Source of the DNA: a virus
Taxonomy: Duplodnaviria > Heunggongvirae > Uroviricota > Caudoviricetes
Length of the DNA: 64,000 nucleotides
Virus record (IMG/VR): IMGVR_UViG_2703718787_000017
Direction: 5' to 3' (one strand)
Numbering within the stretch: the stretch's first letter is position 1; every line of letters begins with the position of its first letter. Below, piece after piece: positions 36,001 through 39,000 of this stretch. The position numbers were made by a program.

Positions 36001-39000
36001 ATGATGTCCTTACTGGTGCTGGTCGCCTGAACGAATCAATGGCAAGCAATACCAAGCCTGTCAGCCCATACTTGATTCTGACCCAACTACTAACGCACGA
36101 CACATTAACTGTAAGCGCTGTGCAGGAGTCCCTGAGCCGTAAGCGTGTCGCCTTGGGTGAACCTATGGTTTCAACTCGCTACGCTCGCTACGTCTATGCT
36201 ACCGTCGTCAGCGCCAGTAAATCCGTCCAGTACCACGCCAGTAAAGCTGGTTCATGATTACGGACCCTAAACTATCACTATAGGGAAGAGCAGCCTCCAC
36301 CTCTGGTCTTGATGCGTCAAGTTATGCGGAAGCTCTCCCGACATTAAGTATCTCTCCTAAGCAATCAAGGTCTGTGACCGCCTCTGTCATTCCTGCATCC
36401 CGTGAGTGTTCTTCTGTCGTCTCGGTTAGTAGCTCGTCTACTCACTACACTGACTTAAGTCTATCAGCACCTACCAGATGCACGCCTGACATGCGGTCCC
36501 GCCTTATATGCACATGGAGAACATGGTCCAAATGTAGCCTACGAAATTTTCGTAAGCTTCGGGCAGGACCAAGGCTGGTAGAAGTCTAACCAACCCAGAA
36601 AACGGGTTTGTTAAAAAGATTAACATGGGTCACTTAGGGCAGGACGCTTCTCTACCGTCCCGCCTTTATTGACACCTGCAGGAAATCATGGTCATCCCCG
36701 ACCAATCAAATCAACCCTATTCACTTTCGTAAGCACTTTCGGCGGCTCCATTTGGTAGCGCTGAATAGGTGTGGAGACCCGCAGGGGAACGAGAGTGCTT
36801 TCTAAAGGAGCTACCTTAATGAACATCCATAAATTCATCGACATGAACGAAGTCATCGCCAGCAATCATCCTCTTGCCAAAGGTACCACTGACAGCGTAA
36901 CGCAGGTCATCGTGTCACACCTGAAGTCCGGCGATGCAGGTATCGACATCCTGAATGCGCCTAAGGCCGCTAGCGATATGTCTGCCAGCTTCCTGAATGA
37001 CTTGAAGAGCAAGTATCGTGTCGTGGCTGGTCATAACTCTGAGGGTCACATTGATGCATGGCTGGCGCATAAGCACAGCGGACGCCGGGTGACGACTAAA
37101 AGCAATGACAAGGGTTATCGCGCTGTGAGCGTGAATGGTCGCCCGTATCAGGAGCACCGCCTTATCGTGGCCCTGTTCTATGATGTGGCACTGCCGGGCT
37201 GGGTGGTAGTTAATCACGCTGTGTCCTGCACCATTTGGAACGAAGGCAAATCAAACCATCCGTTCAACCTCCGATTAACGACATCATATGGTAACCAGCT
37301 TGATAAGAAGGTCCGCGAAGGTGTTCGCAATAAGTTCACCGGGTACTACTTCGATGAATATCGTGGCAAGTGGCGCGTCCAGATGAAGCGGCCTTTCGCT
37401 GGTGGTCCGCAGCATTTCGGCATGTACGACACCGAAGCTGAGGCCTACATTGTCCGCTGCGCTGTCCTCCACCAGCATCTTGGTGCGTTCTGGGCGATGA
37501 CCACCGGGGAATCCGGTCTCGTGCCCCGAGTCAAACCTGACGGTTCTCTGGTACTGCCTACTGAGCATGGTTACGATTGGGCGGAAAACCTGCCTTATCC
37601 TGAGGACTGGGACGACGAGTTCAAGGCCCGGCTGGAGGAGATGAAGCTGTACTGGGACGCATATCATGTGTTCGGTATTGAAGACGAAGAATACTTCGGC
37701 GACTGTGTGTCAGGGCTTGATGTGAACGCAGTAGTGTTCAACGGCGTGCCTGCCATTATCGACATCACAGAAGGACTTCCGGTGTCATATGCTCACTGGT
37801 TCGGACCAAGCCAACGCTTCGAGTTCACCAACTACTACCAGCGCTGCATTCACGCCTGTGACCTTGATGCGGAACCTGAAGAGGAAGACTGGATGGAGAA
37901 CGATTTCTGATGACAATTAAACAGCATATCGACCCTCGCACCGATATCGGCAGGGCAACACTTCGTTATCGTGGTCTGCCTACTCGTCATCTTCTGTCAA
38001 TGCTGGGGATGGGTACTGATTCATCCGAGCGCCCTTACTACAATCGAGACGAGCTGATAGCAATGCTGGTGGACCGTGATTTGAATAATCAGTTGCGTCG
38101 AGCCTTTGCTAAGCAGTCCTGACCATACCACCTTAATTTAAACACCTTTTGAGAATGACCGATGCGGGGAGACCGTAGGCATAACTGTGTCTGCGATACC
38201 GATAGTTCTCACCTTCTCAAGAGGAGTAATTACTATGTCTAGCAAAGCTAGTGCGTTATTCAACAACAACGACTGGAAACTGTCTGTCACCGACATCAAT
38301 CTCTATGAAAATACTGTGAATCTGGATGGGCAGTCCTACCCGTTGTCTCTGGCTATCAAGACCCTCATTCCGGGCTACCTGTCAGGCTTACCGTCCACCA
38401 GCAGCGCGGCGATGGAGCTGTTAGAGGCTCTGGCTGAAGCTGGTGTAGCTATTGGCAACTTCTTCAGTAATGACCTGATGACCGCCTATGGTCGCCGCCA
38501 GCAGAACAAGCGAGCTGAGGCTGAGCGTATCGCTAAAGAGCAGCGCATTCAGGCCGAGCGCATGCGTGAAGAGAACATGACTGATGCAGAGTGGCAGAAA
38601 GAGCTACAGCGCCGCGAACAGGTCAAAGCTGAACGCCGGACCTATGGTGAGAACCTCCGCAGTGCTACCCATTCCGCTGGTCGCTCCCGTGCCGCTATTG
38701 TCGCTGACATTGAGTCAGGCGGTAACTGGATGGACAGCCTCTAAGACAGACACACAAGTGGTCCTGACCTGATGTCGGGACCCACAGTATCTAAAACTAA
38801 TTTAGGAGATTGATTATTATGACCATGATTAAAGATAGCTATCAGTTCGGCATTGAGCCAGTACGTATCACCGACACCGACAACATTCAGGTAAACGAAG
38901 GTCTTCCGACTAACGCCGACCCTCAGGTCTATGCCTTCCAGTTAGCTAAGCTGGTGAAGACCATGCTCAATTCTGTACTTAAAGACGCTCAGGATAACAT

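Follow-up and report, generated by a model that had tools for sequence, protein, structure and literature searches.

A predicted structured leader downstream of a helper-class promoter in a candidate satellite of Kayfunavirus phages

A 6.6-kb island carries a long untranslated stretch behind a T7-class promoter

We analyzed a non-coding stretch at positions 36291-36818 that lies within a 6.6-kb integrase element, hereafter the island, in a window of 64,000 nucleotides (nt) recorded as IMG/VR entry IMGVR_UViG_2703718787_000017. The window is judged to be Escherichia coli chromosome from its cspA-type, DicF and sok RNAs and its near-identical matches to E. coli genomes. The island is inserted within ynfE, a gene whose interruption by an integrative element has been described (PMC7192596), and is bounded by a 14-nt attachment (att) core, GTTCCAGATGAACT, at 33699-33712 and 40296-40309. 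It contains six open reading frames (ORFs). The gene order is integrase (a PF00589 match), three ~80-bp direct repeats, promoter P1 with orf122, and promoter P2 with the stretch under study, followed by a variable cargo gene set, a gene of ~165-185 amino acids (aa) and a gene of ~330 aa. The first cargo gene in the window (36819-37910, + strand) encodes an HNH-AP2 endonuclease-like protein (PHROG 99 HNH endonuclease, E = 2e-16; AP2 domain-containing in the near-identical island L001), and the stretch abuts its translation start, the ATG at 36819. Homologous stretches are present in 166 of 5426 complete E. coli genomes and also in Shigella, Citrobacter koseri and metagenomes, with a more distant relative at a tRNA gene in Rouxiella. 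The zones of the stretch described below were defined by aligning 19-27 distinct variants.

The exact 13-mer TATCACTATAGGG occurs at just two sites in the window, 35844 (P1) and 36273 (P2), all other sites requiring three mismatches. P2 (36265-36285, + strand, with the 13-mer at 36273-36285) is of the Kayfunavirus class, that is, of the K1F-like phages of the T7 family, and its transcript is predicted to begin (+1) with the first G of the GGG, at position 36283. Specifically, the extended promoter CTAAACTATCACTATAGGGAGACC is identical at 25/25 positions to promoters of Kayfunavirus phages, which carry 6-9 copies per genome, and the start region GGGAAGA in the window gives a 20/20 match to the phage right-end promoter. 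P2 is conserved in the alignment of all 27 homologues. Thus, the T7-class promoter that an initial annotation had placed ahead of the stretch is a real promoter of a helper-phage class. A DNA search of phage genomes with the whole stretch gave no match, similarity being limited to the promoter, and the helper's own promoter-proximal regions likewise show no similarity to the stretch beyond it. In some islands P2 is preceded, 27-28 nt upstream, by a further T7-like promoter of different sequence in tandem (position 4652 in L035 and 4986 in L003); the Citrobacter koseri version reads CACCCTCACTATAGGGA and that of E. coli GPEC1035 reads GCACTCACTATAGGGGA. The former has weak multi-site matches in T7-like phages of Enterobacter, Cronobacter and Escherichia and the latter has none; this arrangement hints at dual helper specificity.

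The interval from the predicted +1 of P2 to the HNH-AP2 ATG is 536 nt (533 nt after the 13-mer) and contains no conserved ORF. Its sole sizeable ORF, at 36374-36589 (71 aa, GTG start), has no Pfam or PHROG match and is disrupted by frameshifts and stop codons in the close relatives L002, L019, L004 and L016. Most indel lengths that separate the 27 homologues are not divisible by three (4, 13, 14 and 27 nt), and no ORF is common to the 19 variants examined for one. The initial annotation's statement that this stretch holds no convincing ORF is therefore borne out. Searches for other features of the stretch were also negative. No sigma-70 promoter or intrinsic terminator emerged in the stretch, with counts at chance, TTGACA-like sites picked by eye had no usable -10 boxes, and a tRNA/tmRNA scan found none. 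The Rfam 15 covariance models gave no match in the stretch at gathering thresholds, nor any at E <= 10 when run with permissive filters over 35300-36900.

Covariation moderately supports two predicted folded domains in the 5' block

A 5' block of ~230 nt (36283-36514) is present in all Escherichia and Citrobacter variants, and the RNAalifold consensus of 27 sequences divides it into two predicted domains on the + strand. Domain I (36283-36371) has a closing helix (36299-36306/36365-36371), an inner hairpin at 36308-36321 (CTTGA-TGCG-TCAAG) and an inner helix (36324-36328/36339-36344). The hairpin arms CTTGA/TCAAG of the window are replaced by TCTGA/TCAGA in other sequences, which amounts to two compensated pairs. 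Domain II (36373-36501) is a long irregular stem-loop closed by TGTGACCGC/GCGGTCCCG and TGTCA/TGACA, with inner helices GCAT/ATGC, GTGAGTG/CACCTAC and CTTCTGTC/GACTTAAG, and it is recovered in the single-sequence minimum free energy (MFE) fold (z = -2.2). A long-range pairing in the MFE fold, between 36342-36348 and the AP2 start region, was discarded as it is not conserved where the cargo differs.

The consensus of the 5' block comprises 49 pairs with 98.2% of cells paired, as compared with 24-39% in a control in which the partners were slid. Eight pairs are changed on both sides versus 4.1 +/- 1.3 in shuffles (1/500), with double-sided changes at alignment columns 158-246, 161-243, 170-234, 176-222 and 97-280, while a second measure, that of further pair types, was not significant (232/500). 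There are ~49 G-U cells versus ~12 A-C cells, a ratio of ~4:1 that favours the transcribed + strand. Of the structure prediction and covariance search proposed in the initial annotation, the former gave a fold of the 5' block with moderate support from covariation, and the latter gave no Rfam family.

A closed two-domain fold with covariation is also what might be expected of a stable trans-acting non-coding RNA, in which the ~230-nt block, whose closing helix is followed by CCUUUAU, would be released by termination or processing and would act on transcripts of the helper or the satellite, for example through the CU-rich, anti-Shine-Dalgarno-like UCUCUCCU at 36351-36358. Satellite P4 offers a precedent, since it controls itself by an RNA cut from its own leader. 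Within the block, 36342-36354 shows 85% complementarity to the ribosome-binding region of orf122 (35879-35891), but this inverted repeat (pair I11) is one of 14 such pairs at chance level. Against the 52 translation starts of phage Bas105, the best duplexes reached -44.3 kcal/mol versus a shuffle mean of -46.9 kcal/mol, with 82% of shuffles as good or better, so antisense targeting of helper translation starts was rejected as no better than for shuffled leaders. There is also no plus/minus match of at least 13 nt to the phage, and the U-tract falls short of what a T7-type class I terminator requires, none having been flagged by the terminator scan. We consider a trans-acting RNA very unlikely. 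Of the non-coding RNA that the initial annotation had offered as an alternative to an origin, a structured RNA has support, from the 5' covariation and from the hairpin described in the next section.

The 5' block is pyrimidine-rich (59% C+T, C/G ratio 1.5), and the local C/G ratio reaches 3.1 near 36650. This composition, together with more than 500 nt of untranslated sequence, would suit an insulator at which Rho halts host-polymerase read-through from the integrase and orf122 while the fast phage polymerase passes. However, the skew is modest with G still at 20%, a similar skew extends over orf122 and the upstream repeats, and Rho loads at unstructured sites whereas a fold is predicted for this block. 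An insulating role is extremely unlikely.

The ribosome-binding site of the cargo operon lies in a predicted long hairpin

The 3' leader is preceded in every aligned variant by a small hairpin or palindrome, GGTC-N6-GACC (36690-36703, + strand). Its Rouxiella equivalent is TGAC-CTCACAC-GTCA, with two pairs changed on both sides, and it may be an RNA hairpin or a DNA palindrome, the two being indistinguishable from the sequence data. The 3' leader itself is predicted to form a hairpin that we term class I (36720-36810, + strand), with a lower helix (36720-36741/36789-36810) and an upper helix (36742-36751/36771-36781). The Shine-Dalgarno sequence AAAGGAG (36804-36810) lies in the 3' arm of the lower helix, and CACTTTCG occurs twice in the 5' arm so that two alternative registers are possible. 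The class I hairpin has 31 pairs with 98% of cells paired and three double-sided changes, all of them in the upper helix. The lower helix, which varies solely by C-G or U-A to U-G changes compatible with the + strand, would form a near-continuous duplex of ~20 bp with small bulges, a length sufficient for an RNase III substrate.

Sister islands carry a non-homologous leader, class II, in which the Shine-Dalgarno sequence is likewise placed in the 3' arm of a long hairpin. Covariation in class II is pronounced, with nine double-sided pairs versus 3.5 +/- 1.3 in shuffles (0/500) and 17 pair types versus 12.4 (0/500). Coupling of cargo translation to an upstream ORF that runs from an ATG at 36688 to a TAA within the 5' arm of the class I hairpin was considered and rejected, this ORF not being conserved in L003, L005 and L006.

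A mosaic middle and a narrowly held total length

The middle of the stretch (about 36506-36700) is a mosaic whose modules are shuffled between variants. Alignments reveal a 161-bp insertion module (36496-36666, + strand) bounded by 10-nt direct repeats of GTCCCGCCTT at 36496-36505 and 36657-36666, which is missing from the otherwise near-identical L002-type leader. Inside it lies a 75-nt gene remnant (36565-36639, + strand) corresponding to codons ~53-77 in a cargo gene of sister islands that encodes a KilA-N-like protein of 166 aa. The remnant is identical to positions 3501-3575 of L036 (75/75 nt, and 25/25 aa by tblastn) and is called a pseudo-fragment by PGAP in L001, indicating that part of the stretch is gene debris as opposed to an intact gene. 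It holds a small hairpin, AACCC-AGAAAAC-GGGTT, and a 47-nt core of it recurs in the leaders of L005, L006, L025 (twice) and L035. The whole-leader MFE fold also places a local GC-rich hairpin at 36637-36664 (+ strand; GGGCAGGACG-CTTCTCTAC-CGTCCCGCC followed by TTTATTG), which the terminator scan did not flag. A mosaic, debris-bearing middle fits a role as a spacer.

Length statistics were taken over 17 intact islands, with shared ancestry ignored. The att-to-att length is 6606 +/- 87 bp, and the standard deviations of the parts are 94 bp for the leader, 208 bp for the cargo and 160 bp for the right arm. Leaders are shorter where the cargo is longer (r = -0.77, uncorrected for kinship), and permutation gave p = 7.5e-4 for so narrow a spread of leader plus cargo and p = 1e-4 for that of total length. 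Six copies of the island amount to 39.6 kb, as compared with Kayfunavirus genomes of 39.1-40.7 kb (~39.7 kb), so that the island is about one-sixth of such a genome. PICMI satellites are packaged as eight-copy concatemers that match the genome length of their helper (PMC10803314).

These same data could be read as a largely functionless leftover of recombination and gene decay in which only the last ~30 nt, with the ribosome-binding site, are selected. The identical 75-nt fragment of a sister-island gene, the insertion between direct repeats, the shuffled modules, a near-neutral diversity (given below) and the lack of an Rfam match at E <= 10 all agree with such decay. It does not account well for the compensated pair changes in the 5' block and the class II leader, for the burial of a Shine-Dalgarno sequence in a hairpin in two unrelated leader sequences, for the retention of ~8% of the length of a tiny element in this stretch in 27/27 variants, or for a total length that is held more tightly than any of its parts. 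Mere debris is, in our estimate, rather unlikely.

A possible origin of replication primed from P2

The initial annotation had also suggested that a promoter firing into a long untranslated region could mark a T7-like transcription-primed origin, at which helper RNA polymerase would start at P2, helper DNA polymerase would extend the transcript and the primase-helicase would load on the displaced strand. T7-family promoters can double as origins, and the T7 phiOL and phiOR promoters fire into non-coding DNA. The island resembles the T7 primary origin (phi1.1A/phi1.1B plus an AT-rich region) and phiOL/phiOR in having a T7-family promoter that reads into untranslated sequence, in the presence of primase sites, and in what would be a dependence on a T7-family replisome. 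Pfam and PHROG searches of the island detected no replication or packaging gene, no AlpA and no primase match, yet the element must replicate during infection. It has just two helper-class promoters, of which P2 reads into non-coding DNA from a start region matching that of the phage right-end promoter. T7-primase pentamers are enriched in the stretch, with an observed/expected ratio of 2.5 relative to 1.81 in the island, 1.31 in the phage and 0.44-0.95 in the host flanks.

However, the hallmark of a T7-type origin is a strongly AT-rich tract of ~60 bp right after the promoter, and here the AT content is 42% at +1 to +60 and 52% at +61 to +120, with a maximum of 62% in any 60-bp window (at 36579). 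The missing hallmark weakens the case for an origin, and the stretch further differs from the T7 origin in being 5-10 times longer, folded, and ending at the ribosome-binding site of a gene. The 5' block is stably folded, and the pyrimidine-rich transcript does not favour R-loops. Primase sites number four on each strand of the stretch versus 1.9 and 1.3 expected; their enrichment is strand-symmetric and island-wide, and thus does not single out the stretch as a start site. Moreover, the Rouxiella relative lacks the 5' block and retains only the 3' leader. Overall, a transcription-primed origin at P2 did not hold up well, and we regard it as unlikely.

On both strands, the pentamers GGGTC, TGGTC and GTGTC and the GGTC core are ~1.8-2.0-fold over expectation in the island (33714-40296), 1.3-1.5-fold in Bas105 and 0.44-0.98-fold in the host DNA that flanks the island. 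Primase-site enrichment of this kind suggests replication of the island by the helper replisome and may be a compositional signature of the helper primase-helicase. The three ~80-bp direct repeats between the integrase and P1 (35591-35790; CTTGACAT...GTGAGTCAC...TATATATAC-TTCCTTAATTCCT) resemble iterons, have AT-rich cores and contain no called sigma-70 promoter; they might be bound by orf122 or belong to an origin.

Copies of helper genome-end signals in the island

In addition to the promoters, the island carries three sequences copied from helper genome ends. The first (35455-35482, 27/28 identical) is a hairpin, GGAGGG-N16-CCCTCC, that in the phage lies downstream of the right-end promoter. 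The second (40071-40101, 30/31 identical) holds the palindrome TTTTGGACCAAAA and in the phage abuts the terminal repeat. The third (33830-33845, 16/16 identical), TCCCTATCTGTATCAG, is the counterpart of ATCTGTT, the class II signal of the T7 concatemer junction (bioRxiv 10.1101/2021.01.11.426313). The hairpin and the junction 31-mer occur ~465 nt apart in 219 phage records, in which the pair ends a few bases from the right end of the linear record; the piece at 33830 did not align there. Nearly all islands retain the hairpin and the class II signal; the 31-mer is confined to a subset. Excision as a circle would place the 31-mer ~325 nt from the class II signal across attP, as compared with ~200 nt in the phage. 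A class II (ATCTGTT) pause site within the stretch itself was also sought by reading the sequence and none was seen, the family copy at 33830 being outside it.

The island combines an integrase and att repeats with less than a full phage gene set and with cis signals of a specific helper, and its ORFs have no BLAST-level similarity to helper proteins (tblastn against Bas105, no meaningful match). This mimicry of helper promoters and genome-end motifs leads us to read it, from its sequence, as a candidate satellite of Kayfunavirus phages. Island-length metagenome and Logan contigs were considered as possible excised circles, but they end at the att repeats with no circular or terminal overlap and so are not evidence of excision.

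Other features of the island family

A comparison of the cargo slot (36819-38122) with those of L003-L006, L026 and L035 showed swap-in genes between a constant orf122 and constant ~165-185-aa and ~330-aa genes. The cargo types are HNH-AP2 (with a 70-aa gene), 129 aa plus KilA-N, KilA-N alone, Rha-family, 171 aa plus a 166-aa KilA-N-like gene, 281 aa, and 169 aa, and these may be helper-interference or defence genes. The conserved ~330-aa protein (38810-39808) has no Pfam or PHROG match and 32 close-relative clusters among 5.8 billion proteins; the AlphaFold model of this protein, orf332, which was considered as a possible capsid protein, was unusable (pLDDT 37.5).

A second subfamily (L031 4474-5445 from Rouxiella, L034 5718-7001, and L028) has its insertion sites at a tRNA gene (Rouxiella) and close to ygeQ (E. 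coli). In place of orf122 it has a DUF4145 gene and P1, which leads into a non-coding stretch of its own (~640 nt) in which blocks containing GGCGGA are conserved; P2 follows, with a ~290-nt leader that keeps solely the class II 3' hairpin. L034 is a reduced 4.5-kb form in which the leader is directly 5' of the ~330-aa gene.

Elsewhere in the window, Rfam matches comprise two sRNA-Xcc1 (29172-29257 and 29708-29792, - strand), DicF (51821-51872), the sok antitoxin RNA (57077-57251) and cspA-type thermoregulators (60546-60969 and 63447-63831). The DicF, sok and cspA-type RNAs suggest that a Qin-type cryptic prophage adjoins the island.

Discussion

Our preferred reading, to which we give close to an even chance, is that the stretch is the structured untranslated leader of a satellite cargo operon that gates translation and buffers the length of the unit. 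Gating of translation and spacing of length are its probable roles, in preference to an origin of replication. Based on T7 biology, the host has no polymerase for P2, so the leader would be made only upon infection by a phage that supplies its own RNA polymerase. The transcript would open with the two closed domains of ~230 nt that covariation supports, continue through a variable middle of hairpin modules and gene debris, and end in the predicted long hairpin, within which the first cargo gene's ribosome-binding site would be buried. Such a hairpin could act as a safety gate: cargo of the HNH nuclease, KilA-N and Rha types, which we assume to be toxic, would not be translated until the hairpin was opened or cut. 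RNase III, which processes T7 and lambda leaders, could plausibly cut the ~21-bp helix of this hairpin. The leader could at the same time serve as an adjustable spacer that is longer where the cargo is shorter, thus holding the element at 6.6 kb, or one-sixth of the helper, a length at which one helper head would be filled by six copies in tandem.

Several observations weigh against this leader model. Covariation in the 5' block derives from few independent events among closely related sequences, mainly one divergent allele found in five sequences plus two or three others. Nucleotide diversity of the block is 0.134 (0.066 within the common allele), relative to fourfold-site diversities of 0.154 in int, 0.170 in orf185, 0.192 in orf332 and only 0.039 in orf122. 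Strong purifying selection on the block is thus not seen and constraint on its sequence is weak at best, which is compatible with selection on pairing or length over sequence and also with partial neutrality. The stability of the whole leader relative to shuffles is alike on the two strands (z = -3.6 and -3.7), so energy alone cannot separate an RNA fold from DNA-level inverted repeats. In the class I hairpin, the lower helix that holds the Shine-Dalgarno sequence (21 pairs, 98.8% paired) has no double-sided change, the covariation statistics are not significant (35/500 and 464/500), and the 3' leader, folded as a single sequence, does not stand out from shuffles (z = -1.4). The relation of leader to cargo length, as noted above, carries no correction for kinship.

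The leader matches no known RNA family and is best filed among phage and satellite regulatory leaders. It resembles the RNase III-processed leaders of T7 (R0.3, before gene 0.3) and lambda (N) in what would be a phage-transcribed 5' leader with a predicted long (~21-bp) helix beside the start, and in the prediction that opening or cutting this helix would control translation. In contrast, it shares no sequence homology with them, its Shine-Dalgarno sequence is inside the helix, and the leader is ~540 nt with additional 5' domains. The immunity leader of satellite P4 (CI RNA, seqA/seqC) is similar in that an operon opens with hundreds of untranslated nt containing internally complementary repeats. 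However, there is no homology or Rfam match to it, and in P4 it is the host polymerase that transcribes the leader, which works by terminating transcription prematurely, whereas the promoter here is helper-specific and the sequence presents no evident terminator or processed RNA. As a whole, the island is most comparable to PICMI of Vibrio, also a ~6-kb integrase element of a length that is an integer fraction of a virulent helper (1/8 for PICMI, 1/6 here), which is packaged as concatemers, apparently by a headful mechanism with random ends (PMC10803314). The island differs from PICMI in that it is not fis-adjacent (its insertion site is ynfE, or a tRNA gene in the Rouxiella relative) and has no AlpA or primase match, and in that helper-polymerase promoters and copied genome-end signals are specific to this island family.

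A broader proposal, which we hold to be of rather low probability, is that P2 and the stretch form a dual cis module, with helper polymerase both priming satellite replication and making a processed leader. Selection on length would then yield a six-copy 'ruler', with packaging at the copied junction signals, and the islands would be the first family of satellites of T7-family phages.

The stretch gives the best indication of the wiring that such an element could have, in which dependence of P2 on helper RNA polymerase would constitute a very simple infection sensor. If the leader gates the cargo, it shows how a satellite could silence potentially harmful genes until infection. The larger surprise than the leader is the element that carries it: few phages have been studied as well as T7 and its relatives, yet we found no report in the literature of satellites that exploit T7-family phages, the one related paper to emerge being that on the interruption of ynfE (PMC7192596). 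If the leader also buffers length, then non-coding DNA in a mobile element may be selectable for its size alone, and such selection would keep the size of the element at an integer fraction of its helper's genome.

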